A DNA stretch of 64,000 nucleotides from the NCBI GenBank assembly GCA_964477895.1, contig CAYZFQ010000003.1:122243-186242 (forward strand). Direction: 5' to 3'. Both the position numbers and the translations under genes were made by a program. Position 1 is the stretch's first letter; each line of letters opens with the position of its first letter. Of this stretch, positions 1,266 to 63,225 are shown one piece after another. Source of the stretch: an uncultured Bacteriovoracaceae bacterium (lineage in GTDB: Bacteria > Bdellovibrionota > UBA2428). Under the pieces are notes generated by a model. It was given only the letters and a program-made list of their open reading frames with translations. It did no database searches and was not told the origin of the DNA.

Positions 1266-1400
1266 AAGTAAAGCTCTAATGAGAAGTTTTGTGTGGAGGC
1301 AAGATTATTTTCTACATAGTGTAGAAAAGTATAAATCTACACTAAGGAGTCCTGGGGGACTCTCTATTGCACCCCAAACACCAACTGCTAAGATAAAGCC

Positions 1401-2243: not shown

Positions 2244-2258
2244 GGTTGGGGTTGAGAC

Positions 2259-2758: not shown

Positions 2759-2807
2759 GGAAAACCTTGGAAAAACAAGGAATATATTAAGTCAATAAAT
2801 TGGTTCT

Positions 2808-4076: not shown

Positions 4077-4257
4077 TTCTATTATTCTAGTTCATATTTT
4101 AAAAAACACAATATATCAGCTACTTATAATAAGCGATAATTTAACTTATCGCGCTATAACTGTCGAAATCGAGTGCAGTAGAGGCCTACTTTGCCCTCGC
4201 TTCGCAAGTCTCAAACTCGTAAAATAGGGAAGTCCAAAATTTAAGCTAGGAGTATTT

Positions 4258-4683
4258 ATGCGCAGTTCAAAACTTTTAAATCAGCTCAAGAACCAAGGTC
4301 TCAAAACTCTCTCAATTCTTGTTTTGGGCGGGCAAACGGTAGGGGCCATGGCATTTACACTCCCCCTAAAAGTAGACAGCGAAAGCTCCGCTGAAATTTG
4401 CCAGATGATGGCAAAATCCTCGGTCGATACAGGTATTATTGAAGAAGTGGGCTTTCCTCGAAAAACTGAGGGTCGGCTTATGAGCTATCCCCTTAAGGCG
4501 AAGTATTCAAAACTTCAGTTCCAACAAAACTTTTTTTGTTATCGCAAAATTGCGGAAAGCGGCAGAGGCCGAATGAGCATTCTATCTGCCTCGGAGCAGA
4601 GCCCTGATTGCTTCTGCAAGGGAAACTTAGAGGTGGAGAGCTTTCAAGAGCGCCGGGATATTATCGAGAACGCCGAAGGTTAG
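4258..4683 (+). CDS. Hypothetical secreted protein
   Basis: AGGAG Shine-Dalgarno sequence 7 nt upstream of the ATG. Hydrophobic N-terminal segment. No recognisable domain. Confidence 0.5.
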   Translation: MRSSKLLNQLKNQGLKTLSILVLGGQTVGAMAFTLPLKVDSESSAEICQMMAKSSVDTGIIEEVGFPRKTEGRLMSYPLKAKYSKLQFQQNFFCYRKIAESGRGRMSILSASEQSPDCFCKGNLEVESFQERRDIIENAEG

Positions 4684-6236: not shown

Positions 6237-6431
6237 GAATCCTCCAGATCGGTCTTAACAAGGATGAAATATTTTTCATCCTTGGGGGCTTTTATTCCTC
6301 TAAACCAAATAGGGAATAAAATTTCATTTATATTATTTAGGGCCCTTTCCCCACGCCCCAATACTCCTTATGCTAGCTCATGTTGAATAGTACATTCCAT
6401 AGTGGGGTGGACTTTAAAGGAGATAAATAAC

Positions 6432-6617
6432 ATGAAAAAACTTTTTGGAATCTTTGCAGTAATGGCGCTTTCGACTTCTGTTGCTTTCGCTAACAACCAC
6501 GAAGGCAAAAAAGAAGGCCATCCTGAGAAGAAGCACAGCAAGAAAGAAAAGACTGAAAAGCATCCTGATGGAAGCACTGAAAAAACCACAACTGAGACTA
6601 CTACTGAGAAAAAGTAA
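6432..6617 (+). CDS. Small secreted His/Lys/Glu/Thr-rich peptide (61-aa precursor)
   Basis: Strong SD sequence (AAGGAG) 10 nt before ATG 6432. Signal peptide MKKLFGIFAVMALSTSVAFA. Low-complexity mature part (NNHEGKKEGHPEKKHSKKEKTEKHPDGSTEKTTTETTTEKK). The ORF track started this ORF earlier, at 6402. Confidence 0.55.
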   Translation: MKKLFGIFAVMALSTSVAFANNHEGKKEGHPEKKHSKKEKTEKHPDGSTEKTTTETTTEKK

Positions 6618-6659
6618 GGCGTCACTGAGGACAAAGAGCCCAAAAGGCTTTTAGTGCTG

Positions 6660-6712
6660 ATCCGAGCCCCTCCCCGGAGCCTCTCGGCTCCAAGTGGCTC
6701 GGATTTTTTTTA
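6660..6712 (+). terminator. Rho-independent terminator (nested GC hairpin + T8)
   Basis: ATCCGAGCC (6660-6668) pairs with GGCTCGGAT (6696-6704), with an inner GGAGCC/GGCTCC stem, followed by TTTTTTTT. Lies between the convergent small peptide gene and pepA. Confidence 0.5.
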
Positions 6713-6736
6713 TCTCTACACGCTAAGGCTAAGGCC

Positions 6737-8317
6737 CTAAGTCAGTCCCTCAATAAGAGCAAGCCCTGCTCGCACTCCAAAGCCTTGCTCATCCGTTCCC
6801 ACCAATCCTAAACCTCCAGGATGCACATGAGGCGAAAGATCAATATGCAACCACGGAGTCTCAGCACCAATAAAATGCGAGAGAAAAGTGGCGGCATAAC
6901 TCATGTCGGCCCCGGGGCCTGGGGCAATCTGCCGAGTGTCGGCCACTTCACTTTTTAGGCCCTTCCAAAAATCACCTCCACTGGGCAAAGACAGAAGTCT
7001 TTCGCCGCTGTTCTCAGCGAGGTCCATGGCTTTTTGAGAAAATTTCAAGGTGTGAGAAAAAACTCCGGCACGTTTTTTATCCGTTGCACGCAAACAAGAT
7101 CCCGTAAGAGTAGCAAAGTCGATGCATAGATCAGGGGCTTCTCGTCGTGCCAAGGCCAGGGTGTCGGCTAATACCATCCGCCCTTCGGCATCGGTATTAT
7201 TCACTTCAATGGTGGTCCCATCCAGTGCGGTCACCACGTCGTTAGGACGAAAGGCCGTGGGGGAAATAAGATTTTCAGCGATGGCCATATAGCCATGGAC
7301 CTCAATCGGAAGTTTTAACTGCGCCATCAGTCCCATCAGCGCTAGCACCACGGCAGACCCCGTCATGTCTTTGTGCATGCCTTCCATGTAATCGCCCGTT
7401 TTAATGTTGTAGCCGCCCGTATCAAAGCACAGCCCCTTGCCGACCAATGCAATTTTCTTCTTAGCCCGGGGCGCCTTATACACAAGGTGCGCAATTCCTG
7501 CGTCGTGGTTTTCCTCAGAGCGTGCCACCGCTAAAAAAGAACCAGCTCCCAAGGCTTTTAACTTTTTTTGGTCAATAAACTCAAATTTAAGCTTATTGTC
7601 TTTGCTAAATTTTTCGATCTCTTTGCGATAGCTAGAGGGGTTTAGGTAATTCCCCGGAGTCTCCGCTAAAGTGCGAACGAGGTTCGTCCCCTGGGCGACT
7701 TGCAGAAATTTCTCAAAAATCACCTTTAATTTTGAGGAAGAAATTTTTGCACAGATTTCAATCTTAGTGCTTGATGAATCTTTATCTGCTTTTTCTTTGT
7801 TTGATGCTTTCGTGCGAAGTCCGTATTCTGGCCCCTTCCACTCTACTAGTTCAAAGAGGGAAGCCATACCTTCAAAGGCTTTTTCACCCATCGCGCCCTC
7901 TAAAGCGCAGAGCACCAACTGAGGCTTTGTTTTAAAGGCTAAGCGTAGAGCTTCAAAGAGTTCGTGAGTCGAGATTTTCCCATTTACCAGTAATAGGTTC
8001 ACGGCCCCACCCTCGGTAAAGGGCAAATTCACCGAGGAATACTGAGACGCGGGACCAAAAGCCTTAGCGGGCTGAGGCTTAAGTTTTGATTCCAGGCCCA
8101 CGCCAAAAACGCCAAAGGCCTTGTGCGATTTCAAATCCTTGACCTTTTCCTTAGGCCATACGACAAGACTCACTTTTTTAGAATCGAAAGATTTGAACGC
8201 GGAAAAAGGTTCAAAAGAGTACGTTTTTTCAAAGAATTTCAATGTAGCTGCCATAGACTCCAGCACAGTCGATGCACCGCCACGCTTCAAGCGAATCGAG
8301 CCTTTATATGAATTCAA
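6737..8317 (-). CDS. pepA: Leucyl aminopeptidase, M17 family
   Basis: M17 signatures (NTDAEGRMVLADTLA, GKGLCFDTGGYNIKTG). The true start may be the internal Met at 8254 (MAATLKFF...). Confidence 0.85.
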   Translation of the reverse strand: MNSYKGSIRLKRGGASTVLESMAATLKFFEKTYSFEPFSAFKSFDSKKVSLVVWPKEKVKDLKSHKAFGVFGVGLESKLKPQPAKAFGPASQYSSVNLPFTEGGAVNLLLVNGKISTHELFEALRLAFKTKPQLVLCALEGAMGEKAFEGMASLFELVEWKGPEYGLRTKASNKEKADKDSSSTKIEICAKISSSKLKVIFEKFLQVAQGTNLVRTLAETPGNYLNPSSYRKEIEKFSKDNKLKFEFIDQKKLKALGAGSFLAVARSEENHDAGIAHLVYKAPRAKKKIALVGKGLCFDTGGYNIKTGDYMEGMHKDMTGSAVVLALMGLMAQLKLPIEVHGYMAIAENLISPTAFRPNDVVTALDGTTIEVNNTDAEGRMVLADTLALARREAPDLCIDFATLTGSCLRATDKKRAGVFSHTLKFSQKAMDLAENSGERLLSLPSGGDFWKGLKSEVADTRQIAPGPGADMSYAATFLSHFIGAETPWLHIDLSPHVHPGGLGLVGTDEQGFGVRAGLALIEGLT

Positions 8318-19083: not shown

Positions 19084-21225
19084 TTACCGAGGATTCGGAC
19101 TCGCGCTGCTACCTAGGGGTGGCAAAGCCGCCTTGCGACTCAAACGAATCTTACCCTGGCGGTCGATATCCAAAACTTTCACGGGAATCTGATCGCCTTC
19201 TTGGACGATATCCTGAACCGACTGCACTCGGGTGTGATCCAACTCCGATACGTGCACCAATCCATCTGTTCCCGGCATAATTTCTACAAAGGCACCGTAA
19301 TCGGCAATGCGCACGACCGTGCCCATATAGACCTTACCAATCACAGCTTCTTCCGTAAGATTGCGAATCATTTCCAGAGCTTTTTCGGTGGCCAAGGGAT
19401 CCGTGGAAGCCACGTTCACTTTGCCTGAATCTTCGATGTCGATCTTCACGCCTGTGGCCGCAACAATGCCCTTGATGTTTTTTCCACCGGGGCCAATGAG
19501 GTCTTTGATGCGCTCTTGAGAAATTTGTATCGAGGTGATTCGTGGCGCAAATTTGGAAAGCTCAGCCCGATTTTCTTTGATGGCCGATTCCATTCGATCC
19601 AAAATATGCAGACGACCTTCACGAGCCTGCATCAAAGCTTTGCGCAAGACTTCAGGACTGAGGCCGTCCATCTTGATATCCATTTGCACTGCGGTGATGC
19701 CGGCACGGGTTCCGCAAACTTTAAAGTCCATGTCGCCCATATGGTCTTCGTCCCCCAAAATATCGGAGAGGACCACCACGTTGCTGCCTTCTTTCATTAG
19801 TCCCATGGCAATACCGGCCACAGCTGACTTAATCGGCACACCGGCGTCCATTAGAGCCATCGAAGAGCTACAAACCGTGGCCATAGAAGAAGAACCGTTA
19901 GATTCTAAAACTTCTGAGACCAATCGAATGGTGTAAGGAAATTTTTCGTAATCTGGAGCGATGGCTACCACCGCGCGCTCGGCCAAGGCTCCATGGCCCA
20001 CTTCGCGGCGAGAGTTGCCACCGAAGCGACCCGTTTCACCCACCGAGTAAGGAGGGAAATTATAATGGAGCATAAAGCGCTTATTGAATTTGCCGCGCAC
20101 GCTATCAATAAGCTGCTCGTCTTCGGAAGTTCCTAAAGTACAAATAGCAAGGGCCTGAGTTTCTCCACGAGTGAAGAGGGCCGAACCATGCACTCGAGGC
20201 AAGACACCGGCTTCGACTTCGATAGGACGGATCTGATTGTATTCCCGGCCATCGATGCGTTTGCCCGACTTAAAGGTGAAATCTCTTGCGAAATCTTTTT
20301 TAACTTCGTCAAAGGCTTTTTTCGCCTGAGTTTTTAACAAAAGCTTTTCGGCATCCGTAGTGGCGCCCGCCGTAAACTCGGAAACTACCTTATCTTTGAT
20401 CTTGGCAATTTGCTCGTAACGTGTGGCTTTTTCGCGCTGGGCAAAGGCTTCCCCTAAGGGACCCCAAGCCGAAGCCTTGACTTTAGCGAGAGTGGCCTCG
20501 TCTTTAGGCGGAGATTTGAAATCTTCTTTCTTCTTACCGCATTGTTTGCGCAAGTCTTCTTGAAGGGCAATGAGAGTTTGAATTTGCTCGAAACCGAAGA
20601 ACACCGCCTTAAGGAAAGTATCCTCATCAATGTTGTCGGCCCCACCCTCAACCATCATAATGGCGTCCTTGGTGCCCGACACTAAAATCGACATGTCGGA
20701 GCCATCTTGGGCTGTGGTCGTGGGATTAATCACAAATTCATTATTGATTCGTCCCACGCGCACAGTGGCGATCGGATTCGTAAAAGGAATCGGTGAAAGA
20801 TACAGGGCAATAGAAGCCCCCAAACCTGCAATGGTTTCGCACTCATTTTCTCCGTCGTAGGAAAGAATGGTGACTACCACTTGGGTGTCACGACGAAAAC
20901 CTTCAGGGAAAAGAGGTCGCAAGGGACGGTCTACCAGGCGAGCGTTAAGCGTTGCCCATTCCGAAGGGCGAGCCTCACGTTTGAAAAAGCCACCGGGTAT
21001 TTTTCCGGAAGCGTAGAATTTTTCTTGGAACTCGATGGTGAGCGGGAAAAAATCAATCCCCTCTTTTTCTTCTGCCTTGGCCACAGCGGTAACCAAAGCG
21101 GAGGTCTCACCATACTGAATAAAAACTGAACCATGCGATTGCTTGGCTAAACGGCCCGTTTCGATTTTTAAAGTTCTACCGCCAAATTCAGTACTTACCG
21201 TGACGGGGTTATTAAGTTGTTGCAT
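19084..21225 (-). CDS. pnp: Polynucleotide phosphorylase
   Basis: Two RNase PH domains, KH and S1 domains. Start chosen at ATG 21225 (MQQLNNPVTV...), which is preceded by a GGGAGA SD. The ORF track extended the start to 21270. Confidence 0.9.
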   Translation of the reverse strand: MQQLNNPVTVSTEFGGRTLKIETGRLAKQSHGSVFIQYGETSALVTAVAKAEEKEGIDFFPLTIEFQEKFYASGKIPGGFFKREARPSEWATLNARLVDRPLRPLFPEGFRRDTQVVVTILSYDGENECETIAGLGASIALYLSPIPFTNPIATVRVGRINNEFVINPTTTAQDGSDMSILVSGTKDAIMMVEGGADNIDEDTFLKAVFFGFEQIQTLIALQEDLRKQCGKKKEDFKSPPKDEATLAKVKASAWGPLGEAFAQREKATRYEQIAKIKDKVVSEFTAGATTDAEKLLLKTQAKKAFDEVKKDFARDFTFKSGKRIDGREYNQIRPIEVEAGVLPRVHGSALFTRGETQALAICTLGTSEDEQLIDSVRGKFNKRFMLHYNFPPYSVGETGRFGGNSRREVGHGALAERAVVAIAPDYEKFPYTIRLVSEVLESNGSSSMATVCSSSMALMDAGVPIKSAVAGIAMGLMKEGSNVVVLSDILGDEDHMGDMDFKVCGTRAGITAVQMDIKMDGLSPEVLRKALMQAREGRLHILDRMESAIKENRAELSKFAPRITSIQISQERIKDLIGPGGKNIKGIVAATGVKIDIEDSGKVNVASTDPLATEKALEMIRNLTEEAVIGKVYMGTVVRIADYGAFVEIMPGTDGLVHVSELDHTRVQSVQDIVQEGDQIPVKVLDIDRQGKIRLSRKAALPPLGSSASPNPR

Positions 21226-21291
21226 TTTATCTCCCAAAAAGACGGACGAGGGCCCTGGCGAAATCGCCAAAAATAAACTCGCTGCGGCGAC

Positions 21292-21633: not shown

Positions 21634-22617
21634 TTAAAAGTCATCGGGGTCAAAGGGCGATCGCAAAAAGACTCGTCCCAGGCGAACGGGGGGCCCTGGT
21701 TGAACCCAGGCTACGGGCTGAACCTTATCGGGGGCCAGAAGGAGCAAGGGGCGTTCGAGGGTCTCGGGGAGAGGGTAAGCGCCCGTTGCGAGAAGCCGGG
21801 AGGCCTGGAGGGGCTCGAGGGTGTGAGTATCAAAGAGAGACCTCAGGTCATCGAGACCCAGCTGACGAAACCGGAATTCAGGTATACCCGTTAACCCGTA
21901 TACCTGAATTCCGGTGGCCGCCCTCTCCAAAGGAGCGCCGATTTCAAATGGACCTATGGCGCTACGACGCAGGTCCAGCAGCATCCCCGGGAATCCACAG
22001 AGGGCCTCGCCCCAGTCCCGGGCTAGGGACCTGATGTAGGTTCCGGCCGCGACTTGCACCCGAAAGACCCACTCAAGTCCCGGCACCGAAGCGGAACCTT
22101 TTTCTAAAATAAATTCCCGAAGCGATTCATGCTCAATGGAAATAATTTCGGCAGGCCGTGCCGTCATTTCAACTCGTTCCCCCGCTCGTACCCTGTCGTA
22201 AGCTCGCTTACCATCCACCTTAATGGCACTGAGCGCGGGGGGAACCTGCATGATTTTTCCCACAGCCTTCGGTAAAAAATCTTGGATTTTATTTGTAATA
22301 TTTTCTAAATTTAACGAGAGGGGGCTCTCTGGCAAAATCAGCGCTCCCGTTTCGTCCAAACTATCGGAGCTCGCCCCCATAAACATTCGGGCCTGGTAGC
22401 TTTTGTCTAAGCCTGTAAGAGGTGCAAGTAACTTAGTTCCCTCACCAGTCCCGACCAACAATAAGCCTTCGGCAAAGGGATCCAAAGTTCCCGTGTGCCC
22501 AATATTCAATCGGCTTTTTACAAGGGCGCCCGACTTCTGCGCCAAAGTCTTTTTAAATTTGAAAAGGCAATCTTGCGAAAGCAGGCCCTTATCTTTCCAA
22601 ACTAGATAAAGGCCCAC
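21634..22617 (-). CDS. truB: tRNA pseudouridine(55) synthase
   Basis: TruB catalytic motif GHTGTLDPFAEGLL. Contains a 44-bp near-palindrome within its coding frame (see findings). Confidence 0.85.
   Translation of the reverse strand: MGLYLVWKDKGLLSQDCLFKFKKTLAQKSGALVKSRLNIGHTGTLDPFAEGLLLVGTGEGTKLLAPLTGLDKSYQARMFMGASSDSLDETGALILPESPLSLNLENITNKIQDFLPKAVGKIMQVPPALSAIKVDGKRAYDRVRAGERVEMTARPAEIISIEHESLREFILEKGSASVPGLEWVFRVQVAAGTYIRSLARDWGEALCGFPGMLLDLRRSAIGPFEIGAPLERAATGIQVYGLTGIPEFRFRQLGLDDLRSLFDTHTLEPLQASRLLATGAYPLPETLERPLLLLAPDKVQPVAWVQPGPPVRLGRVFLRSPFDPDDF
21871..21914. repeat. 44-bp near-perfect palindrome (17-bp perfect arms around a GTTAAC centre) inside truB
   Basis: CCGGAATTCAGGTATAC (21871-21887) and GTATACCTGAATTCCGG (21898-21914) are exact reverse complements. 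The central GTTAAC is also palindromic. 40 of 44 positions are symmetric. Confidence 0.8.
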
Positions 22618-39578: not shown

Positions 39579-39621
39579 AAAATAAAAAATGACGGGTTGG
39601 ACCGGCAGGTTCCAACCCGTC
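39579..39621 (-). terminator. Rho-independent terminator (11-bp stem + U-tract) downstream of the small Cys protein gene
   Basis: GACGGGTTGGA (39591-39601) pairs with TCCAACCCGTC (39611-39621), with a 9-nt loop. On the minus strand it is followed by ATTTTTTATTTT. A second 8-bp hairpin lies at 39633-39660. Confidence 0.55.
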
Positions 39622-50883: not shown

Positions 50884-51003
50884 ATAATATTGCTACCTAA
50901 AATCACTCCCGAAGAGAAGATCGAGAGAAAAAAAGCGTGAAAAAGACAAAAAAAAAGCCGCGTCCCAGCATATCTGGGACGCGGCTTAGAATTTTTTAGG
51001 GAC

Positions 51004-51738: not shown

Positions 51739-52653
51739 TTAGTGGCTCGGGTTGATCTCAGTTTCTAATTTAGACAGAAGTTTTTGGGCTCTTCGATTAT
51801 CCACCTGAGAACCCCTAAAGACCTTTAAGCTCTCGCGCAGAAGGCGCAAAACAGGCTCCGACATGACCTTAAGGCTGGGCTCTTGAATCATATCTCTAGC
51901 ATGACTTTGATAGCTAGCCATGAGCTCACTGACCTTGTTTAAAGCACGAGGATCCCCAGCCTTAGCTGAAAAATATAAATACTTTCCATTCATATCTACT
52001 TTCGATTCGGGCGCTTGGATTTCGAGACTCACGTAATTTTGGAACATTGAACTCAGAAGTCGGTTGATTTTAGGATTGTAAGATCTCGCAAGTAATAATT
52101 TCCCGTGGCGCTCAATAACAGCGGCCAATAAAATATCTAAGGCCTCACACTTGCTATCAATATGTTGAATTTTACTAAAGTGGCCCCGTAGGTCGGGCCC
52201 ACTTTGGTTCACACGTCGACACCGATCAATCTGCGGAAACAAAAATTCAGCCCATCTCTCAACGGAGACCGATTCAACTGCGGCACGAGGGATATCTCCA
52301 GCAAAGATGCTATTGCCCTCTGCTTTCTTAGCCACGATAAAATCCTGTATCACGGAAGGAATTTCAATATTGGAGAAATTATATTTTGAAATCTCGCCGT
52401 TAATTCCATTTTCGCGCTCACTCAACTTAGGCAAATCATAATTTCCATTTTCACGGTCAGCTACATGAGCTTTCTGATTGGCCATGAATTCCTCTAGCAG
52501 ATTCGCTAGGTCTGCCGCTTTGCCAATCGGCCGGTCATCATAAGAGACCTTTTCTTTTTCCCTATGACTTGCTACGGGATTCGATTTCTTCCCGTAAACA
52601 AACCCGGGAAAAGCACTCCCCAAAACCCAAACGGAAAAGATCGCCAATCTCAT
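51739..52653 (-). CDS. Hypothetical secreted protein
   Basis: Signal peptide. No recognised domain. Located between the prepilin-like gene and rpmI. Confidence 0.5.
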   Translation of the reverse strand: MRLAIFSVWVLGSAFPGFVYGKKSNPVASHREKEKVSYDDRPIGKAADLANLLEEFMANQKAHVADRENGNYDLPKLSERENGINGEISKYNFSNIEIPSVIQDFIVAKKAEGNSIFAGDIPRAAVESVSVERWAEFLFPQIDRCRRVNQSGPDLRGHFSKIQHIDSKCEALDILLAAVIERHGKLLLARSYNPKINRLLSSMFQNYVSLEIQAPESKVDMNGKYLYFSAKAGDPRALNKVSELMASYQSHARDMIQEPSLKVMSEPVLRLLRESLKVFRGSQVDNRRAQKLLSKLETEINPSH

Positions 52654-52707
52654 AACTCCATTATACGCGGTCTCAAAATACGAACTAAAGTAAAGTTTAG
52701 GTTAATC

Positions 52708-53718
52708 TCAAGGCTGTAGCTGCATCGGAGTGACGTAGAGCTTCAAATCCCAGTTATTGGGGTTGATATCAAGAATCTCTCCAGAATTTTTATCAAATAT
52801 GCGCATCTTTGCTCCATCTTTATTGTGGATGTAAATACTGCTCGGGGTAACGGTATAAAAAAAGGCTAAATTGAAAGGATTGGTTTCCATAACAAAGGGA
52901 ATTTCCTCTCCAACTTGATAATTGGCCTCAGTCGTTTTTGCCTTCAAGGCCATTCGAGCGATGATATTTGTGGTGTTAAAGGGATTCGGGATAGTGACAC
53001 GAGGATTGCCAAAAGGGGGGCCTGGAGTCGGAGTCGTCAAAGCAGAAGCGGATGCTTGTACCACAAAAGTCCGCGTAGCCGACTCTGGTAACTGAACCCC
53101 GCATCTTTGAATTTTCCCATTTGTCGTAGAACCCAAGGGATTAACAAGAATCTTCACTCCAAACTGAGCCGTGTATGAAGGAGCCCCGTAAGAACCGGCC
53201 TGCTTTTTCACACCCAAAAGAAGTTGGGCTGTGAAAGCCCTGTAAGGTGTCGTCACAGGGGGAGTCGCATTATTAGCTACATCGACGATTCCATCGTAAG
53301 TGGCTTCAGTAAACTCAAGCTTTTCTACCACCATGCCCCCACCTAAATTCTGATTGATAGAAACGATGGTGGAGGAGCCCTGAACGATTTTTTGCACGGG
53401 AAGTGGTGCGGTTGGGCTCAGCACATTCACTGCGGGATTTGTGGTGAGGGTTAACCAAGTAGAGGTCGCTGGCAACTGAAGACTCACATGGGAGCCGTCG
53501 GCATTCTGAAAGGCGCCATTGCAGCTGTTGCCGGCCAGAACCAAGGTGATATTAGATTTTAAGGTGTCGAACTCCACGGCATTCTGAACGTTTTTCTGCC
53601 CTTTGATGGCCGACGACATAAACTGGTTAAAAATCACGGCCACCAAACCCAAGATGGTGATGGCAACTAAAACCTCAATCATTGATAATCCACGCCGGCT
53701 ACTCTTCATAAGTACCAT
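52708..53718 (-). CDS. Prepilin-type N-terminal cleavage/methylation domain protein (large type IV pilin/pseudopilin-like)
   Basis: The class-III signal SSRRG|LSMIEVLVAITILGLVAVIF follows Met at 53718/53709. The ORF-track extension to 53928 overlaps infC and is rejected. Confidence 0.6.
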   Translation of the reverse strand: MVLMKSSRRGLSMIEVLVAITILGLVAVIFNQFMSSAIKGQKNVQNAVEFDTLKSNITLVLAGNSCNGAFQNADGSHVSLQLPATSTWLTLTTNPAVNVLSPTAPLPVQKIVQGSSTIVSINQNLGGGMVVEKLEFTEATYDGIVDVANNATPPVTTPYRAFTAQLLLGVKKQAGSYGAPSYTAQFGVKILVNPLGSTTNGKIQRCGVQLPESATRTFVVQASASALTTPTPGPPFGNPRVTIPNPFNTTNIIARMALKAKTTEANYQVGEEIPFVMETNPFNLAFFYTVTPSSIYIHNKDGAKMRIFDKNSGEILDINPNNWDLKLYVTPMQLQP

Positions 53719-53758
53719 TATGCCTGAATTTGAGCTGAGGTTAAGACCTGTGCTTTTT

Positions 53759-54403
53759 TTAAGCCGCGTCGGTCCCGCCGCCAGCGGCAGGAGCCGGCGG
53801 AACCGGAGGCGCAAAGGACCCACCCCCACCAAAGCCAGGATTATTACTTCGACGCACCGGCGGGCTCTTAGGCAAGCTTTGCAGCAAGGCACCTGGAGCC
53901 AATTTCTTACCCGGAGGTACCGGACCAAAGATCACAGCCAGACGTTTGCCCTCGAGCTTCGGCATCATTTCCATCACGGCCCGGTCTTGTAATTTATTGA
54001 TAAATTGAATCAGAGTCTGCCAACCGGTTTCGATGTGCTCCAGTTCCCGACCTCGGTAAAATACCGTGAGCTTAACTTTGTCCCCATCTTCCAAAAATCC
54101 AATGGCCGACTTGGCTTTGTGTTCCAAATCATGACTTTCGGTTTTCGGGCGGATCTGGATTTCTTTGATCTCCACGATCACTTGTTTTTTCTTGGCCACT
54201 TGGGCCTTCTTTTTTTCTTCGTACTTATATTTGCCGTAGTCCATGATCTTGCAAACAGGCGGATCGGACTTTTGCGCCACTTCCACAAGATCAAGCCCCA
54301 GCGAATCCGCCATTTGGGTGGCCTGACGAGTGTCGAGAATGCCCAGCTGTTCGCCGTCTTTTCCGATCACACGCACATAGGCCGCACGAATTTGTCGATT
54401 AAT
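53759..54403 (-). CDS. infC: Translation initiation factor IF-3, probable non-canonical (ATT/ATC) start; Pro/Gly-rich C-terminal tail
   Basis: The ORF track starts at an internal GTG (54376). The reading frame continues upstream as ...INRQIRAAYVRVIGKDGEQLGI, matching the IF-3 N-domain. AAGGAGG lies just after the thrS stop. Candidate ATT start at 54401-54403 or ATC at 54422-54424. Confidence 0.75.
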   Translation of the reverse strand: MNRQIRAAYVRVIGKDGEQLGILDTRQATQMADSLGLDLVEVAQKSDPPVCKIMDYGKYKYEEKKKAQVAKKKQVIVEIKEIQIRPKTESHDLEHKAKSAIGFLEDGDKVKLTVFYRGRELEHIETGWQTLIQFINKLQDRAVMEMMPKLEGKRLAVIFGPVPPGKKLAPGALLQSLPKSPPVRRSNNPGFGGGGSFAPPVPPAPAAGGGTDAA

Positions 54404-54435: not shown

Positions 54436-56301
54436 TTAGAGCTTGGGTTGTGCGGATTCTTGAGCGAAGAGCTCCAAGAGCGCATCCATCGTAACATTGG
54501 ATTTCTGGCTTCCATCGCGTAAACGCAAGCTGACTTGTTTTTCCTGAGCTTCTCTGGCGCCGATAATGATCATATAAGGGGATTTGTGGGCCTGGTATTT
54601 TTTAATTTTGCCCGAAAGTTTGTCTGAAGAATCATCAATAAGGACACGATAACCCCTTTTTTTCAGTTCAGCAAAGAGAGAATTCGCAAAGTCTACGGAT
54701 TCATCTGAAACCGAGAGTATCACCGCCTGCATGGGTGCCAGCCACATGGGAAAGTGTCCGGCCACGTGCTCAATAAAAATCCCGATAAATCGCTCAAGAG
54801 AACCCGCGATCGCTCGGTGGATCATGACGGGAGTATGCATTTGATTATCAGAACTTACGTACTCCAGACTAAAGTTTTTAGGCATATTAAAATCGAGCTG
54901 AACGGTGCCGCATTGGTGGGTGCGCCCGATTGAGTCCCTGAGGTGAAAGTCGATCTTGGGCCCGTAGAAGGCCCCATCACCGGGATTAACTTTGTAGGTG
55001 AGGTCCGCCGCTTTTAAGGCATTGGCGAGAGCCCCCTCGGCCTTGTCCCAAATTTCTTCTGAGCCCATGCGTTTTTCCGGGCGAGTGGAGAGTTCCACAA
55101 AGTAATCAAAGCCAAAGCCCTTGTAAAATTTGCGGACCATCTCAAGAACCCGGGTGATCTCTGACTCAATTTGGTCTTGGGTGCAGTACACGTGGGCATC
55201 GTCTTGAACAAAGCTGCGCACTCTGAAAAGCCCGGCCGTAACCCCACTTCGCTCGTGCCGATGCACTCTTCCAAACTCCGCAAAGCGAATCGGAAGCTCA
55301 CGGTAGGAGTGCCGAAAGGTTTTAAACATTAAGCAATGACCTGGGCAGTTCATAGGCTTCAAAGCGAAATCCCGCTCATCCACCTGGGTAAAGTACATAT
55401 TTTCAGCGTAGTTCTGGTAGTGCCCCGACATCTTCCAAAGTTCTTGTGAGAGCACAAGTGGGGTGATCACATCTTCAAATCCATACTCTCGGTTCAAAGC
55501 ACGCAGGTAGTCTTGAATTTGAATATATAAAAAAGCCCCCGCCGGATGGAAAAAGGGAGAGGCCGGAGCTTCCGGATGAAAGGAAAAAAGATGTTGGTCC
55601 GTGCCTATGCGGCGGTGATCTCGCTTTTTAGCCTCTTCAATTTGGGTAAGGTAAGCCTGAAGTCCTTCTTTAGACGCGAAAGCCGTGCCGTAAATTCGCG
55701 CGAGCATTTCGTTTTTTTCATCGCCCCGCCAGTAAGCTCCCGCCACACTCATCAGCTTAACGGCTGGAATGTGGCCCGTAGATCCCACGTGGGGGCCTCG
55801 GCACAAATCCACAAAATCACCTTGCCAATAGACACTCACAGAAGTGATTCCCTGGGCTTTTTGTAAATCCCGGATAATTTCGCACTTATAGTTTTCGCCA
55901 AGTCCTTTGAAAAATTCAATGGCCTTGTCCACAGCCCAGTCTTCGCGGCGGATGGGGAGTTTGGCTTTGATGATTTCCTTCATCTTGGCTTCGATCGCTG
56001 GGAGCTCTTCTTCTTTAAAGCCGCCCTTGCGAACAAAGTCGTAGTAAAAACCATTTTCAATCACCGGACCAATGGTCACTTGGACCTCAGGATACAAGGC
56101 CTTAACCGCTTGGGCCAAAATATGAGCCGAGCTGTGGCGGATAATATCGAGCCCGTCCGCAGAATCAGGCTTCACCCACTCGTAGCCTGAGGTATCGGCG
56201 GGCAATTCCATATGGATGTCGTAGATTTGACCTGCGACCTTAATGCCAACAACGGTAAATCCAGGAGGCTGTGCTTTTAAGAGGTCGAGGCCGCGACTCA
56301 T
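54436..56301 (-). CDS. thrS: Threonine--tRNA ligase
   Basis: 621 aa. Class II aaRS with TGS and editing domains. Confidence 0.9.
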   Translation of the reverse strand: MSRGLDLLKAQPPGFTVVGIKVAGQIYDIHMELPADTSGYEWVKPDSADGLDIIRHSSAHILAQAVKALYPEVQVTIGPVIENGFYYDFVRKGGFKEEELPAIEAKMKEIIKAKLPIRREDWAVDKAIEFFKGLGENYKCEIIRDLQKAQGITSVSVYWQGDFVDLCRGPHVGSTGHIPAVKLMSVAGAYWRGDEKNEMLARIYGTAFASKEGLQAYLTQIEEAKKRDHRRIGTDQHLFSFHPEAPASPFFHPAGAFLYIQIQDYLRALNREYGFEDVITPLVLSQELWKMSGHYQNYAENMYFTQVDERDFALKPMNCPGHCLMFKTFRHSYRELPIRFAEFGRVHRHERSGVTAGLFRVRSFVQDDAHVYCTQDQIESEITRVLEMVRKFYKGFGFDYFVELSTRPEKRMGSEEIWDKAEGALANALKAADLTYKVNPGDGAFYGPKIDFHLRDSIGRTHQCGTVQLDFNMPKNFSLEYVSSDNQMHTPVMIHRAIAGSLERFIGIFIEHVAGHFPMWLAPMQAVILSVSDESVDFANSLFAELKKRGYRVLIDDSSDKLSGKIKKYQAHKSPYMIIIGAREAQEKQVSLRLRDGSQKSNVTMDALLELFAQESAQPKL

Positions 56302-58331
56302 GTAGGGTTCTGTGCTCCAAGGTTGGTCGTAGGCGAAACCGTCTGCTGGGTGGGCGGGGTCTCAGCTTGTTGCTTTTGACCAATCCGGCGGAGGGCATCT
56401 ACGGGGGTTAGTTCCACTTCGTCTTGGAGACTATCTAAGTAAGTGTAGGAGTTCAAACCCTCTTCGTAATGACGCATAAGCAGGCGTGCTTCTTCCAAAG
56501 AAATCGTTTTGCGGCTTAAAGCAAGTTCGAGAGCATCTCTCACCTTGCGAACCAATGTGGGCCGGTCGTACTGAACATATCCTAAGACCTCGTTTACGGT
56601 ATCTCCCTCGATCACGTGGTCTATGGCGTATTCTCCCAGCGGGGTGACCGACACGTGCACCGCATCGGTATCTCCAAAGAGGTTATGGAAATCGCCCAAA
56701 ATTTCTTGGTAGGCGCCAATAAGGAACATCCCCACATAATATTCTTCGCCTTCTTTGATACTGTGAAGTTCCAAAGTTTCCTTGATATCTTTGACATCAA
56801 TAAATTTGTCGATTTTCCCGTCGGAATCACAGGTGAGGTCTAAGAGTGTCGCTCGACGAGTGGGCTCTTCTTTGAGGCGGTGAATGGGCATAATGGGAAA
56901 AAGCTGATCCACGGCCCAGGTATCGGGAGCTGATTGGAAGAGTGAAAAATTACAATAGTAGGAATCGGCTAAAAACTTATTGAGCACCGAGACTTCTTCG
57001 GGCGGACGAGAGGCTGTCTCAGCTACGCCAAGGGCTTTGGTGCAAAAGGCACGGAAAAGAGTTTCCATCGTGGCTCGCTGCCGAAGAGTAAAAAAGCCTA
57101 AATTAAACAAACTCATCGAATCATCGCGGAGCTTAAAGGCATCCTGCATATGTTCGTTGAGATTTTTAGCCGTAAGACTCTTATACAAATTATGGAGCTC
57201 AGTGACGGTTTCGTTTTCTTCGGAAGTGGCCTCTGGAGGAATTTCGTTTGTGCGGATCAAATTCGCACCCACAATATTAAATACCAGAATGCTGTGATGG
57301 GCCACTAGAGCTCGGCCTGCTTCGGTCACGATATTAGGGTGAGGTATCCCCCGAGTGTCGCAGGCCGAGGCAATTTGGGCGACCACGTCGTTGGCGTACT
57401 CTTGAACGGTGTAGTTGACCGAATTTTCCCAATTGGTTTGGGATCCATCGTAATCCACGCCAAGGCCCCCACCCACGTCGATGTATTTTAAACCCGCACC
57501 CATGGCAGCCAGTTCTACATAAAGACGAGAAGCCTCAATGAGAGAGTCTTTAATGGCTCGAAGAGCCGTGATCTGGGAACCAATATGAAAGTGCATGAGT
57601 TCCAGGCACGAGAGAAGATTGTTTTTCTCTAAAAGCTCCACTCCCCGAACCATTTCAGCAGCGGTGAGACCAAACTTAGATTTTACACCCGAGCTTTCGA
57701 CCCACTTCCCCGCGCCCCGAGCTTCCAGCTTCGCACGAAAGCCAATTCGAGGGGCAATGTTAAGAGTGCGACTGGCTTTAATCACAGCTTCAAGTTCGGA
57801 AAAGCGCTCGATCACGATAATGGTGTTGCGACCAAGCTTCTGCGAAAGAAGGGCTGTTTCAATATAGTCGGCGTCTTTAAAGCCGTTACAAATTACCAGG
57901 GCCTCGGGATTGTCCATGCAAGCCAAAGCAATAAGAAGCTCTGGCTTAGAGCCCGCCTCAAGACCTAAAGAAGCGTCTCGTCCGTACTTTACAATTTCTT
58001 CTACCAGGTAACGCTGCTGATTCACTTTGATGGGGTAAACGCCACGGTACTTGCCTTTATAGCCAAAACTTTCAAAAGCATTATTAAAGGACTGCGACAT
58101 CATCTTGATGCGCGACTGAACGATATCCGGAAAGCGAATAAGAAGCGGAGTGCGCAGTCCACGACCCTGAAGGTCACAAACCAAGTCATTGAGGTCAATT
58201 CCGATATGATTGGAATTCACACCACTGGGGTGCACCTCAACATTGCCTTTGTCGTTAATTTTAAAATATCCCGCTCCCCAGCTATCGATATTGTAAAGTT
58301 CTGCACTTTTTTTCAGACTCCAAAGATCCAA
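56298..58331 (-). CDS. speA: Biosynthetic arginine decarboxylase
   Basis: 677 aa, SpeA family. ATGA overlap with thrS. Confidence 0.9.
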   Translation of the reverse strand: MDLWSLKKSAELYNIDSWGAGYFKINDKGNVEVHPSGVNSNHIGIDLNDLVCDLQGRGLRTPLLIRFPDIVQSRIKMMSQSFNNAFESFGYKGKYRGVYPIKVNQQRYLVEEIVKYGRDASLGLEAGSKPELLIALACMDNPEALVICNGFKDADYIETALLSQKLGRNTIIVIERFSELEAVIKASRTLNIAPRIGFRAKLEARGAGKWVESSGVKSKFGLTAAEMVRGVELLEKNNLLSCLELMHFHIGSQITALRAIKDSLIEASRLYVELAAMGAGLKYIDVGGGLGVDYDGSQTNWENSVNYTVQEYANDVVAQIASACDTRGIPHPNIVTEAGRALVAHHSILVFNIVGANLIRTNEIPPEATSEENETVTELHNLYKSLTAKNLNEHMQDAFKLRDDSMSLFNLGFFTLRQRATMETLFRAFCTKALGVAETASRPPEEVSVLNKFLADSYYCNFSLFQSAPDTWAVDQLFPIMPIHRLKEEPTRRATLLDLTCDSDGKIDKFIDVKDIKETLELHSIKEGEEYYVGMFLIGAYQEILGDFHNLFGDTDAVHVSVTPLGEYAIDHVIEGDTVNEVLGYVQYDRPTLVRKVRDALELALSRKTISLEEARLLMRHYEEGLNSYTYLDSLQDEVELTPVDALRRIGQKQQAETPPTQQTVSPTTNLGAQNPT

Positions 58332-58405: not shown

Positions 58406-58819
58406 TCATTTTACGCCCAGGAACTCAGGCACAAAACTGTGGGGGAGGAGGTCTTTGAGTTTGTATTTGATTTGAATACCGCTCGGATTAGCGAGGAGAA
58501 TATCCATCTCAGGAGAGCAAAACTCGGCCAGCGCCTGCAGGCAGTGCCCGCATGGGGGGACCGGCTTGGGGGCTTCGGCCACGATGGCCAAGAGGGAGAA
58601 TTTCTTTACTCCCGAGCTCACGGCTTTCACGAGAGCGGTTCTTTCGGCACAAATGGCGGCCGGGTAGCTCACGTTCTCTACATTGCAGCCCGTGAAGACG
58701 CCGGAGGATGACTGGAAAGCTGCGCCCACTTTAAAATTGGAATAAGGCGAGTAAGAGAAATTGCGAGCCGCTACGGCTTCTTTCCAAAGAGATTTTTCGG
58801 CATCGGTAAAGGTGGACAT
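58406..58819 (-). CDS. cdd: Cytidine deaminase
   Basis: Zinc motifs CAERTA and PCGHCLQ. Confidence 0.85.
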   Translation of the reverse strand: MSTFTDAEKSLWKEAVAARNFSYSPYSNFKVGAAFQSSSGVFTGCNVENVSYPAAICAERTALVKAVSSGVKKFSLLAIVAEAPKPVPPCGHCLQALAEFCSPEMDILLANPSGIQIKYKLKDLLPHSFVPEFLGVK

Positions 58820-58952
58820 GCGGGCGATATTATCAGCGGATTTTGAGGGTGCAAGGGGAGGAGACTTCTAGAGTATACGTATGACGCAGTGGATATTGGC
58901 CCTCCAACTATCGGACTCTCGTCCACTTCGTAGGAACACAGACATCATCTGA

Positions 58953-59030
58953 TGTAGGAAGTTATCATTTTTTGACTACATACGAATTGAATCGATGAGA
59001 GATGTAGTCAAAAAATGATAACTTCCTACA
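58953..59030. repeat. 29-bp perfect inverted repeat with 20-nt spacer (intergenic, cdd-hemB)
   Basis: TGTAGGAAGTTATCATTTTTTGACTACAT (58953-58981) is the exact reverse complement of ATGTAGTCAAAAAATGATAACTTCCTACA (59002-59030). Spacer is ACGAATTGAATCGATGAGAG. Confidence 0.85.
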
Positions 59031-59106
59031 ATATCTCGACTCGGCAATTTAACGTTGGCAAATTCGTCTCCGAAATCAAATTTTATGCGTGATCCAAGGC
59101 CGCAGC

Positions 59107-60084
59107 CTACTTGCGAAGCAACTTCGCGGCTTCCACCGCCCAGTAAGTCAAAATAAACTGCGCCCCGGCGCGCTTAAAGCTCAGCAGACTTTCCATAAAG
59201 ACTTTCTGCTCATCCACCCAGCCCTGAGCTGCGGCGGCCTTCACCATCGAGTACTCCCCACTCACATGATACACACCCACAGGAATTGGCGATTCATTGG
59301 TGACCTCTCGCAAAATATCAAGGCAGGGAATCCCTGGCTTAACCAAAAGCATGTCGGCTCCTTGGTCCACGTCGAGCCGCGCCTCCCGTAAAGCCTCTTT
59401 ACGATTGGCCACGTCCATTTGATAAGTTTTTCGGTCTCCAAACTGTGGGGCGTTCTCTGCGGCCTCACGGAAGGGGCCATAAAAACTCGAGGCGTATTTC
59501 ACTGCATATGAGCAAAGGCTAATGTGATTTTTATTATCTTTGTCTAGCGCCAAGCGCATCTTCGCAATCATGGAGTCCACCATGCCGGATGGTGCAATAA
59601 TATTTGCGCCCGCATTCGCGTAACACAATGCCATTTTTTCAAGTCCAGCCAAAGTGGCCTCACGCTCACGCAACTGAGATTCCACATGCATGGGCCCACA
59701 ATGGCCATGACTCGTATATTCGCAGTAACAGGCATCAGCGAATAAATTTACATCGCCCAACTCTTTGCGATACTTTCGCAAAGCTTCGGCCACCGGACCT
59801 TTTTCGTCCCAAGCCTTTTCTCCACCCGGACTTTTGTCGGCGGAATCCACAATGCCAAACAAAATAAAACTTTTAACTCCGAGTTCTCGGGCCTCAGTTA
59901 CAAATTTTAACGAATCTTCCACCGACCACTGGCGCACGCCAGGCATGGAGGAAATATCTCGGCTCTTTGTGTGATTTAGAAATAGAGGAAGTACGAGGTC
60001 TTGGCTGCGCAAAGAATTTTCGGCCACCAGATCTCTTAAAGCAGAACTGCTTCGAAGACGTTCAGGACTATGCATGCCTCGCAT
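59107..60084 (-). CDS. hemB: Porphobilinogen synthase (delta-aminolevulinate dehydratase)
   Basis: 325 aa. Conserved ALAD motifs including active-site lysines. Confidence 0.9.
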   Translation of the reverse strand: MRGMHSPERLRSSSALRDLVAENSLRSQDLVLPLFLNHTKSRDISSMPGVRQWSVEDSLKFVTEARELGVKSFILFGIVDSADKSPGGEKAWDEKGPVAEALRKYRKELGDVNLFADACYCEYTSHGHCGPMHVESQLREREATLAGLEKMALCYANAGANIIAPSGMVDSMIAKMRLALDKDNKNHISLCSYAVKYASSFYGPFREAAENAPQFGDRKTYQMDVANRKEALREARLDVDQGADMLLVKPGIPCLDILREVTNESPIPVGVYHVSGEYSMVKAAAAQGWVDEQKVFMESLLSFKRAGAQFILTYWAVEAAKLLRK

Positions 60085-60129
60085 CTAAAAAGAAAAGCCC
60101 GATTCTCTCAAGGAGAATCAGGCCTTTTC
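60085..60129. terminator. Bidirectional hairpin terminator abutting the hemB start codon
   Basis: GCCC-GATTCTC-TCAAG-GAGAATC-A-GGC hairpin (60097-60123) flanked by an A-run (60086-60096) and TTTT (60125-60128). Confidence 0.5.
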
Positions 60130-60587: not shown

Positions 60588-60794
60588 ATGAGGAAAGCTG
60601 TTGGAGTTTTATTCTTAGGCGCCCTCAGCTGGGCTTTGACTGCTGAAGCGGGGATAGCCCCTCGTAAAAAGCCACCGATCCGCTTGCCGAGTAGCCAAAA
60701 AATTCTCAACCCCGCTCCCTCGAATTACGAAGTCAGCCCTGATGGAAGCATTCATTTTAAAGACATTCGCAAAGTCAAAAAATCACGAAAATAA
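60588..60794 (+). CDS. Small secreted basic protein (68 aa)
   Basis: AAGGAGG SD before ATG 60588. Signal peptide MRKAVGVLFLGALSWALTAEA. The ORF track started at 60537. Confidence 0.5.
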   Translation: MRKAVGVLFLGALSWALTAEAGIAPRKKPPIRLPSSQKILNPAPSNYEVSPDGSIHFKDIRKVKKSRK

Positions 60795-62006
60795 ACGAGG
60801 GGCTCGACTCAAAAGCAGTTGCCCACTTTTATTTAAAAAATACTCTGCAGGAATGGGCCGACAATTGTAATGGGAAGCCATCACATATCCATAAGCACCC
60901 ACCCCTTCGATCACAAAAAAATCATTCTCCTGAGGACTTGTAAAACTTCGGTCTCGTCCTAAAACATCAGAACTTTCGCAAACCGGACCGACCACATCAA
61001 AATTCTTTTGTTCGCCCAGGTTTTTCGCACGTAGGGGGCCCATGGGATGCACGGCCTGATAAAGGGCCGGACGCAGAAGCTCTGTCATGCTCGCGTCCAC
61101 AATGAGGAAGTTTTTCTTAAGCGTGGATTTTGTTCCTAAAACTCGAGTCACTAAAAAACCCGCCTGGGCGACGAGGGCCCTTCCTAATTCATTATAAACG
61201 AGAGCCTCAGACCCCTGCAGAGCCTGCCATTCACGCGTTGTCTGGGCCACAAGTTTGCCATAGGCGCTAAAGGGCGGGAGCTTCTGGGGCTCCGAATAGG
61301 GCACCCCTAAGCCGCCCCCAACGTCTAAAATTTTAAGCGAATGACCTTGAACTTTAAGCTCCTTCGCAAAATCCAGAGTGAGTTTTAGAGCCGAGGCCAA
61401 GGCCGAGAGGTCGAGCATCTGAGAACCAATATGCACGCTAATTCCATTCATTTTAAGGTGAGGGGACGACTTTAAGCGAGTGGCTAACTTTTGAGCCTCA
61501 TTAAAATCAATTCCAAACTTATGCTCGTGTAGGCCTGTTGAAATATAGGGATGACTTTTGGCATCCACATCGGGATTCACACGAAAGGCAATTTGCGCTT
61601 GAGTTCCCAGCTCGGCACAACATTCTTCCAGGCGTTGCAACTCGCCTTCACTCTCCACCACGATTAAATCCACCCGAGCTTTAAGTGCAGACCTTAGCTC
61701 CCCTCGACTTTTGCCCACCCCCGAGAAAATCATATCGGAGCTCGCAAAGCCGCTACTTTTCGCCACCTCTAATTCAAAGCCTGAAACTAAATCCACCCCA
61801 CAATTCTTAGACAAGAAGAACTTTAGGACATCGGGATTTGTATTGGATTTTAAGGCAAAGTGGGTATGAACAAATTTCACCTCGGCCCCTAAAGATTCTT
61901 GGTAGGCCGACCATAAAGTTTCAAGATGCCTCTCAGTATAAAGATAAAAGGGAGTGCTGAGGGGTTCCAGATCTTCTGTGAGAATATCTCCTAAATGCGG
62001 TAGCAT
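60783..62006 (-). CDS. lysA: Diaminopimelate decarboxylase
   Basis: Fold-III PLP decarboxylase motifs. Start set at ATG 62006 (MLPHLGDIL...TPFYLY), 4 nt after the lysC stop. The longer ORF-track start would overlap lysC. Confidence 0.85.
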   Translation of the reverse strand: MLPHLGDILTEDLEPLSTPFYLYTERHLETLWSAYQESLGAEVKFVHTHFALKSNTNPDVLKFFLSKNCGVDLVSGFELEVAKSSGFASSDMIFSGVGKSRGELRSALKARVDLIVVESEGELQRLEECCAELGTQAQIAFRVNPDVDAKSHPYISTGLHEHKFGIDFNEAQKLATRLKSSPHLKMNGISVHIGSQMLDLSALASALKLTLDFAKELKVQGHSLKILDVGGGLGVPYSEPQKLPPFSAYGKLVAQTTREWQALQGSEALVYNELGRALVAQAGFLVTRVLGTKSTLKKNFLIVDASMTELLRPALYQAVHPMGPLRAKNLGEQKNFDVVGPVCESSDVLGRDRSFTSPQENDFFVIEGVGAYGYVMASHYNCRPIPAEYFLNKSGQLLLSRAPRLFS

Positions 62007-62010
62007 GACT

Positions 62011-63225
62011 TCACTGTGCCAGCTTAAAGACATCATGCAAAGTAGCCACGGTCTTATCTTTGTCCACCGCATCGATCAGCACCGAAACTTTAATTTCACT
62101 TGTTGTGATAAGGAGGCTGGGAACTTGGATCTTTTCTAGACTTTCAAAAAGAGTCGCGGCAACCCCTGAATGAGTGCGCATCCCAATTCCCACAATGGAA
62201 ACCTTCACCACATTTTCTTTTTGAATTCGGGCCTTGGAAGTCGCCAATAGCTCAAGAGCCTTTTTTCCCTCATCCCGGGGGACGGTAAAATTCACATTAC
62301 AAAGGCCTTCTGCGTCGGGTGCCGTTTTAACAATTACATCCACGTTGATTCCGGCATCTGCCAAGGGCCGCAAAAATTTTGCAGGATAGCGCGCTTCGCT
62401 TTCTTTGAGAGTGAGGGCCAAGAGACACTCGGCCGAATCACTGGTGATTGACGACACGACTGGGGATTCTAACATTTCAGACTCCTTTAAAATTGTGGTG
62501 GCCCCACCCTCGGGATCAAAGGTGGAGAGGACTCGCAACTTAAGATCAAATTTAGCCGCTAACTCTACGGAACGCATATGCAAAACCTTCGCCCCTAAAC
62601 TCGCAAGCTCCATCATTTCTGAAAAAGAAATTTCTTTTATAACCCGAGCTTGAGGAACAATTCGCGGATCAGCGGTAAAAACTCCCACCACATCGGTATA
62701 GATATCGCATCGAGACGCCTGTATAGCCGCCGCGATGGCCACTGCCGAAGTGTCTGAACCTCCGCGCCCAAGGGTCGTAATAAAACTTTCACCCTCATCA
62801 TTTTTTCGAACCCCTTGGAAACCCGCGATGACGGGGACCACTCCGGCCTCGAGATATTTTTTCAGCAAGTCGGTCCGGATGTTTTGAATTCGCGCCTTTG
62901 TAAAAAGGTCATCGGTTTCAATGCCCACCTGAAAGCCCAACAGCGGCACCGCAGGGATTCCCCGTTGACTCAAGGCAATGGCTACCAAAGCACAGCTCAC
63001 CTGCTCACCGGAGGCCAAAAGCATATCGTAAGCCGTAGGATCGGGCTGAGCGCTAAGCTCGTAGGCCATTTCCACCAGTTTGTTTGTTTGTCCGGCCATC
63101 GCCGAAACCACCACGACATTTTGCTCAGTCTGTTCCTTGAGAGCAATAAGGTCGGCCACTTTGGCAATGCGCTCTAAACTTCCAACAGAAGTCCCTCCAA
63201 ATTTTTGCACCACAAGCTGTCGCAA
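62011..63225 (-). CDS. lysC: Aspartate kinase
   Basis: 404 aa. N-terminal VVQKFGGTSV kinase motif. C-terminal ACT domains. Confidence 0.9.
   Translation of the reverse strand: MRQLVVQKFGGTSVGSLERIAKVADLIALKEQTEQNVVVVSAMAGQTNKLVEMAYELSAQPDPTAYDMLLASGEQVSCALVAIALSQRGIPAVPLLGFQVGIETDDLFTKARIQNIRTDLLKKYLEAGVVPVIAGFQGVRKNDEGESFITTLGRGGSDTSAVAIAAAIQASRCDIYTDVVGVFTADPRIVPQARVIKEISFSEMMELASLGAKVLHMRSVELAAKFDLKLRVLSTFDPEGGATTILKESEMLESPVVSSITSDSAECLLALTLKESEARYPAKFLRPLADAGINVDVIVKTAPDAEGLCNVNFTVPRDEGKKALELLATSKARIQKENVVKVSIVGIGMRTHSGVAATLFESLEKIQVPSLLITTSEIKVSVLIDAVDKDKTVATLHDVFKLAQ

Follow-up and report, generated by a model that had tools for sequence, protein, structure and literature searches.

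A 78-bp perfect hairpin between hemB and cdd in an uncultured Bacteriovoracaceae bacterium, possibly a MITE-like palindromic insertion

Considering its composition, its arms and its complete lack of conservation, a 78-bp unit located between hemB and cdd in a 64,000-nt stretch of DNA from an uncultured Bacteriovoracaceae bacterium (hereafter, the window) is most likely a young, lineage-specific palindromic insertion and not a conserved regulatory device, and we would class it with the small palindromic insertions already known, as a new member without a definite place among them. The origin that we favor, tentatively, is that of a MITE-like remnant, which would today be transcribed together with its neighbors and fold, as RNA, into a 29-bp duplex. 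We infer its mobile origin, its co-transcription and the RNase processing of the hairpin from the features described below, the coordinates of which are collected in Table 1.

The unit was first noticed in an earlier note, which had placed a 29-bp perfect inverted repeat with a 20-nt gap at positions 58953–59030. A repeat finder returned the same coordinates, with the two arms complementary at 29/29 positions and 20 nt between them. The 29-nt arm occurred at just these two sites in the 64-kb window, even when 3 mismatches were allowed, and was matched in 0 of 100 shuffles; the 78-bp hairpin was also the longest inverted repeat within 200 nt across the 64 kb. The runner-up among the perfect stems of the window, of 18 bp, lies inside truB (21634–22617, minus strand). 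There, a 46-nt near-perfect palindrome with a 10-nt loop (21870–21915), the second-longest hairpin in the window, can otherwise be read as 23-nt arms (91%) with no gap, and includes GAATTC and GTATAC. The 78-bp unit contains no ORF; its termini read TG...CA, and a TA is found just inside each end.

Table 1. Features of the hemB–cdd region (positions in the window; a dot in the strand column marks features given without a strand).
Feature	Positions	Strand	Basis
Left arm of perfect inverted repeat, TGTAGGAAGTTATCATTTTTTGACTACAT, 27.6% GC	58953..58981	.	Repeat finder, window search
Loop, 20-nt non-palindromic spacer, ACGAATTGAATCGATGAGAG on +, includes ATCGAT	58982..59001	.	Repeat finder, folding
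Right arm, exact reverse complement of left arm	59002..59030	.	Repeat finder
Left TA, which with the right TA could be a 2-bp target-site duplication, taking GGAAG...CTTCC (58957–59026) as the mobile unit	58955..58956	.	Inference from sequence
Right TA, the other half of this possible duplication	59027..59028	.	Inference from sequence
Promoter-like TAGTCA-16-TACAAT, right arm plus 2 flanking bases, antisense into hemB	59005..59032	+	Consensus match only
Whole hemB–cdd spacer, 287 nt	58820..59106	-	
hemB (porphobilinogen synthase), upstream gene	59107-60084	-	Pfam
cdd (cytidine deaminase), downstream gene	58406-58819	-	Pfam
speA	56298-58331	-	Pfam
thrS	54436-56301	-	Pfam
infC	53759-54376	-	
lysA	60783-62072	-	

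An independent Logan assembly (SRR13208889, L002) was identical at every aligned base over 371 nt, comprising the spacer and both gene ends, a result that speaks against an artefact of a single assembly. Since each flank is unique and keeps its synteny in relatives, a fold-back or adapter artefact is improbable too; to our knowledge, the hairpin bears no likeness to common hairpin adapters. The further local symmetry that had been suggested for the flanking DNA did not survive analysis. In 231 of 1000 shuffles, the similarity of the flank to the arm or to GTAGGAA was equalled; GTAGGAA is no more frequent in the window than background, and CATCATCTGATG is a micro-palindrome of 5–6 bp only. A flanking GTAGGAA as a third, decayed arm was rejected on the same shuffles.

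The isolated 78-mer, folded as RNA, came to −41.6 kcal/mol for the minus strand (z = −13.2) and −43.5 kcal/mol for the plus strand (z = −11.8), and to about −28 kcal/mol as DNA; in a 191-nt context it folded independently of its flanks. Such a strong hairpin, starting 76 nt past the hemB stop and ending 133 nt before the cdd ATG, could be an unusual intrinsic terminator of hemB, but we consider this extremely unlikely. An intrinsic terminator has a short GC-rich stem, a loop of 3–8 nt and a T-run directly after it. The clear terminators of the window (6660–6704, 39591–39621, 50955–50987 and 60093–60127) have stems of 11–15 bp followed by T-runs and are mostly GC-rich; the earlier note had described the stem of the hairpin as far longer than normal terminators. 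It was correct that no T-tract follows on either strand: the tails ATATCTCGACTC and TCAGATGATGTC lack T-runs, and the T6 and A6 runs of the hairpin fall inside the stem in the wrong order, the T-run 5′ and the A-run 3′. With its 29-bp stem of 28% GC, its 20-nt loop and no T-run, the hairpin is an outlier and not this organism's terminator style. Moreover, hemB and cdd overlap in relatives, meaning that they are co-transcribed there.

The location given previously, downstream of hemB and upstream of cdd-speA-thrS-infC, was confirmed by Pfam matches for hemB, cdd, speA and thrS and by the placement of infC. On the minus strand, the order is lysA, a 57-aa lipoprotein-like ORF, hemB, the hairpin, cdd, speA, thrS, infC, two unannotated ORFs, rpmI, rplT and pheST. 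The two ORFs between infC and rpmI, genes that are contiguous in most bacteria, have no Pfam matches (51739–53928, minus strand); one, of ~406 aa, has a type-IV-pilin-like N-terminal segment (...GLSMIEVLVAITILGLVAV...) and the other, of 304 aa, is secreted-looking. No canonical terminator was found behind hemB, the next one on the minus strand being that after rplT (50955–50987), and a scan of the minus strand from the hairpin to cdd revealed no consensus sigma-70 promoter. Reading the sequence by eye gave no convincing match to a sigma-54 promoter, a sigma-70 promoter or an IHF site. Because hemB lacks a terminator and cdd lacks a recognizable promoter, the unit is probably part of a read-through message covering hemB-cdd-speA-thrS-infC-rpmI-rplT. 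The promoter-like match formed by the right arm is weak and outward-pointing, and such matches occur at background frequency.

Two further features of these genes were observed. Just upstream of the cdd ATG (58820–58840, minus strand) there is no Shine-Dalgarno-like sequence, and a weak TTGCAC-16-TAATAT, below the scan threshold and read by eye, stops 7 nt short of the ATG; its use would make the cdd mRNA leaderless. In front of hemB, a terminator-like hairpin with a T-run (60093–60127, minus strand) ends just 3 nt before the ATG and thus leaves no room for a hemB promoter. Hairpins are likewise found upstream of hemB in relatives, one of nearly the same sequence (L005, 3921–3955) and one with a 20-bp perfect GC-rich stem (L020, 2211–2254). 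One possibility is that attenuation or read-through at this point, between the small ORF for the lipoprotein and hemB, has been conserved.

To place the hairpin in its lineage, we compared eight distinct related loci, in which hemB is 60–74% identical and the order hemB-cdd-speA(-thrS) is kept. The two genes overlap by 1 nt in L005 and L018/L019 and by 4 nt in L020 and L021, and are separated by 5 nt in L006 and by 77 nt in L003/L004, as compared with 287 nt in the window. The junction is thus undisrupted in six relatives, a seventh being a near-duplicate locus counted within those six. Since their genes overlap, hemB and cdd are co-transcribed in relatives, and these overlaps and near-fusions suggest that the ancestral hemB-cdd was fused and probably translationally coupled, the spacer and the hairpin being lineage-specific additions. 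In L007 (hemB 64% identical), a 1.9-kb insertion (4994–6871) is present at the hemB–cdd junction; together with the hairpin spacer of the window, it indicates that this junction was disrupted independently in two lineages. Three ORFs, of 288, 132 and 76 aa, run on the opposite strand within the L007 insertion, and Pfam gave no solid match for any of them.

Neither the hairpin, nor a similar sequence, nor any long AT-rich hairpin was present in the loci of the eight relatives. The arms are not conserved, one of three outcomes that the earlier note had named as refuting: the relatives lack the hairpin, and their spacers are mostly overlaps or ≤77 nt. When the 77-nt spacer of the closest relative was searched for insertion edges or an ancestral arm, it showed no similarity to the 287-nt spacer above that of shuffles. 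Among 5.8 billion proteins, the best non-identical hemB homologue was 74% identical and the best cdd homologue 59%, and one named hemB relative was a 'Bdellovibrionales bacterium' MAG; judged by these identities, the source lineage appears isolated. With the next hemB at 74% and the next cdd at 59%, there is no close relative in which an empty site could be demonstrated.

This complete lack of conservation disfavors both a selected RNA and a protein-binding or recombination site. A selected RNA element, be it a hairpin serving RNase III processing or stability, or a small RNA, that separates hemB from cdd-speA-thrS, would fit the intercistronic position in a same-strand gene string with no terminator or promoter consensus around it, and also the very stable, flank-independent fold on the mRNA strand; the perfect arms could then reflect purifying selection. 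It is nevertheless unlikely, as the hairpin is conserved in no relative and matches no Rfam family at the gathering score, and a single sequence offers no covariation; the perfect arms are equally explained by youth. In the Rfam search, tRNA alone passed the gathering thresholds across the whole window. A permissive E-value scan around the hairpin returned generic plant and animal miRNA-precursor matches of 17–41 bits, against thresholds of 54–135, matches of a kind that any long perfect hairpin will draw. Of the four candidates proposed in the earlier note, a MITE-like element with an incidental RNA-hairpin or processing effect is the best fit, whereas the conserved small RNA, the operator and the recombination site lose ground for want of conservation.

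A site for a DNA-binding protein, either an operator bound by a dimeric or tetrameric cdd regulator or the site of a tyrosine recombinase, is highly unlikely for additional reasons. Its dyad symmetry is perfect, a tyrosine recombinase gene is present in the window (2808–4076), and the outer 13 nt of each arm agree at 11/13 positions with what we take to be the loxP arm, a level reached by 39 of 20,000 shuffles. A lox-type core, however, consists of two ~13-bp arms facing inward across a crossover spacer of 6–8 bp. The loxP-like 13-mers of the hairpin are outermost, face outward and lie 52 bp apart, and the flanks provide no partner arms that would complete the core (6/13 each), so that a lox-type core site was rejected. 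The center of the repeat is ~170 nt upstream of the cdd ATG, the combination of 29-bp arms with a 20-bp gap is unlike known operators, and relatives in which these genes are kept lack the site. The recombinase gene, the sole one among the window ORFs, is 55 kb away from the hairpin beside a ParE toxin gene, in a seemingly unrelated island. That region at the window start (405–4683) is a probable mobile or defense islet, with an HTH/DUF4423 protein (405–1265), the ParE toxin (2259–2528), unannotated ORFs, the recombinase (422 aa, with a SAM-like N-domain) and then rmuC. An integron attC site was rejected as well: attC sites are imperfect palindromes with R″/R′ ends (RYYYAAC / GTTRRRY) and extrahelical bases, and the arms of the hairpin are perfectly paired without bulges and end in TGTAGG/CCTACA.

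We then asked whether the unit has further copies. In the rest of the 64 kb, no second copy, full or partial, was found above chance, either with 3 mismatches allowed or by blastn-short with a word size of 7. The arm 20-mer gave one single-arm chance match, in a Dysgonomonas coding region, among 185,579 representative genomes (GTDB, one per species) and 0 matches in the JGI metagenomes; the arm 18-mer gave two matches in IMG/VR, each single-arm and due to chance, and blastn against plasmids and phages returned nothing significant. The lack of additional copies, which the earlier note had likewise named as refuting, thus applies to the window and to the public collections, the source genome not being among those retrieved. 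Indeed, the scans did not return the window's own hairpin, indicating that the source genome is effectively outside these collections; with its other ~98% uncovered, the absence of copies is weak evidence on the copy number within that genome. No transposase or RAYT (Y1_Tnp) was found among the ~56 window ORFs.

A looser pattern, consisting of the outer 12 nt of both arms (TAGGAAGTTATC...GATAACTTCCTA) with a gap of 35–65 nt, was also searched for in metagenomes; its chance expectation, on a rough estimate, is roughly 0.1, and higher in real genomes rich in inverted repeats. It returned eight loci (L010–L017), all of them copies of one IS110-family element, which encodes a DEDD transposase (PF01548 and PF02371). 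The hairpin of this element resembles that of the window in having the same outer 12 nt in both arms and a similar size (71 vs 74 nt), but it has a ~17-bp repeat and a GC-rich interior and lies inside a 1.6-kb transposase element, and no such gene is near the window hairpin. Beyond the imposed 12+12 nt, the interiors and flanks were no more alike than shuffles, and we regard the match as coincidence or, at most, convergence, while noting it as a lead. The element itself (L012 3616–5229; also L010, L011 and L013–L017) is a 1.6-kb insertion sequence present in several genomic contexts, and the sequence just past its end recurs in the same contigs, suggesting that the target it inserted into was itself a repeat. 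In its 71-nt hairpin, at the 3′ non-coding end (L012 5047–5117), the ~17-bp arms read TAGGAAGTTATCCAYAG and carry a perfect DnaA-box-like TTATCCACA; CGGAGCGGAG is also found there twice as a direct repeat, and this may be the bridge-RNA region of the element.

Analysis of base composition provided a different kind of evidence. The GC content of the hairpin is 30.8%, which puts it in the lowest 0.7% of 78-nt windows. Outside the hairpin, the spacer has 50% GC towards cdd and 45% towards hemB, the mean for other intergenic DNA being 45.5%. The edges of the AT-rich block coincide with the repeat ends, and the block bounded by the repeat looks like inserted DNA. At 78 bp, with 29-bp perfect terminal repeats and without an ORF, the hairpin has the anatomy of a MITE. 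This compositional block, the TG...CA termini, the internal TA, the lack of coding capacity, the perfect arms and the fact that the junction was also hit in L007 favor the MITE-like reading; the failure to find a second copy, a parent element, a transposase in the window, an empty site or an unambiguous target-site duplication speaks against it. No direct repeat abuts the repeat ends (TGA and ATA), and the sole candidate is the TA inside the palindrome; as TA is self-complementary, such a duplication is indistinguishable from part of the palindrome and hence uninformative.

The same negative results would need no unseen copies if the hairpin had arisen in situ, by one template-switch (strand-switch) error of replication in which 29 nt were copied from the opposite strand after the spacer had grown; no mobile family would then exist, and consequences for the mRNA would be incidental. 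This is the main rival of the MITE-like reading and only somewhat less probable. It accounts for the single copy in the window and none in the collections, for the lack of a clear target duplication and of a nearby transposase, for the perfect arms and for relatives without the unit. On the other hand, arms and spacer together form a discrete AT-rich block with normal GC on either side, which resembles inserted DNA more closely than a local copy, the 20-nt spacer has no micro-palindrome to prime a fold-back, and the lack of copies weighs little when the source genome is apparently outside the collections. Short template-switch mutations, or quasi-palindrome correction, can yield a perfect inverted repeat of a few tens of bp at one stroke, as a lone copy that needs neither a target duplication nor a transposase. 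As a rule, what they perfect or lengthen is sequence already present locally, whereas the window block differs in composition from its flanks and no ancestor is at hand.

In the MITE-like reading, an ancestral fused or translationally coupled hemB–cdd junction would have received a 78-bp insertion, and the remnant would be what is left of a DNA transposon once all but 20 bp between its two terminal inverted repeats had been lost. Insertion may have taken place at a TA (TG/TA/GGAAG...CTTCC/TA/CA), in which case the empty site would have read TGTACA, within ...CATCTGATGTACAATATCTCG...; the perfect arms suggest that the origin is recent. In a read-through mRNA, the arms would pair without a mismatch as an A-form duplex of 29 bp, at about −42 kcal/mol. 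A helix of more than about two turns is a classic RNase III substrate and a barrier to 3′-exonucleases such as PNPase, the gene for which is present in the window (19084–21270). RNase III cleavage or stabilization would then be expected to uncouple the stability and translation of hemB from those of cdd-speA-thrS, as documented for Correia/NEMIS elements in Neisseria (PMC2649163). A bolder version, which we rate as distinctly unlikely, is that the unit is the first member of a new 78-bp palindromic mobile family in an unsampled Bdellovibrionales-like lineage, perhaps mobilized via the lox-arm-like 13-mers by a recombinase and not by a DDE transposase, and perhaps co-opted as an RNase III module splitting hemB from cdd.

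If the hairpin is a mobile palindrome, a tiny insertion has broken translational coupling in a housekeeping operon (hemB-cdd-speA-thrS-infC) and added a double-stranded RNA module to it, and the unit flags a repeat family in a barely sampled lineage resembling predatory bacteria. If it is a template-switch product, it provides a clean natural case of how a long hairpin can arise de novo within an operon of a bacterium. Either way it is one unconserved locus, and its general significance is limited accordingly.

Among known systems, the closest structural analogue is the REPIN or GTAG-REP dimer. In these head-to-head dimers, two inverted units with outer GTAG and a spacer of 20–100 bp form one long hairpin (PMC3733652, PMC3337134), each REP unit being an imperfect palindrome with a stem of 5–13 bp, a loop of 2–20 and an adjoining GTAG tail (PMC3733652). 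Similarly, the arms of the window hairpin start with T-GTAG-GAAG, its spacer is in range, and it forms a long hairpin in an intergenic position within an operon. Unlike in REP units, the only pairings within an arm are a 3-bp TCA/TGA and a 5-bp TGTAG/CTACA, the latter using up the GTAG. REPs are also accompanied by tens to thousands of copies and a RAYT, and neither was found for the window hairpin in the 64-kb window and its ~56 ORFs, so that membership in the REP class is not supported.

In functional terms, the relevant comparison is with the Correia/NEMIS elements (CREE) of Neisseria. These are small non-coding palindromic insertions with ~26-bp terminal inverted repeats and TA ends, which are often co-transcribed with their neighbors; their RNA hairpin binds RNase III, by which it is cleaved or protected, and their ends can create outward promoters (PMC2649163). 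The window unit is likewise small, palindromic and non-coding, with repeats of about 25–29 bp, TA at its ends and an outward promoter-like match. It differs from them in being 78 bp long, in having no second copy detected and in belonging to an uncultured Bdellovibrionales-like lineage. Correia elements are ~105–155 bp long, have an IHF-binding core and occur in hundreds of copies per genome. By this analogy of form and presumed fate in the mRNA, Correia/NEMIS elements are the closest functional analogue of the window hairpin.
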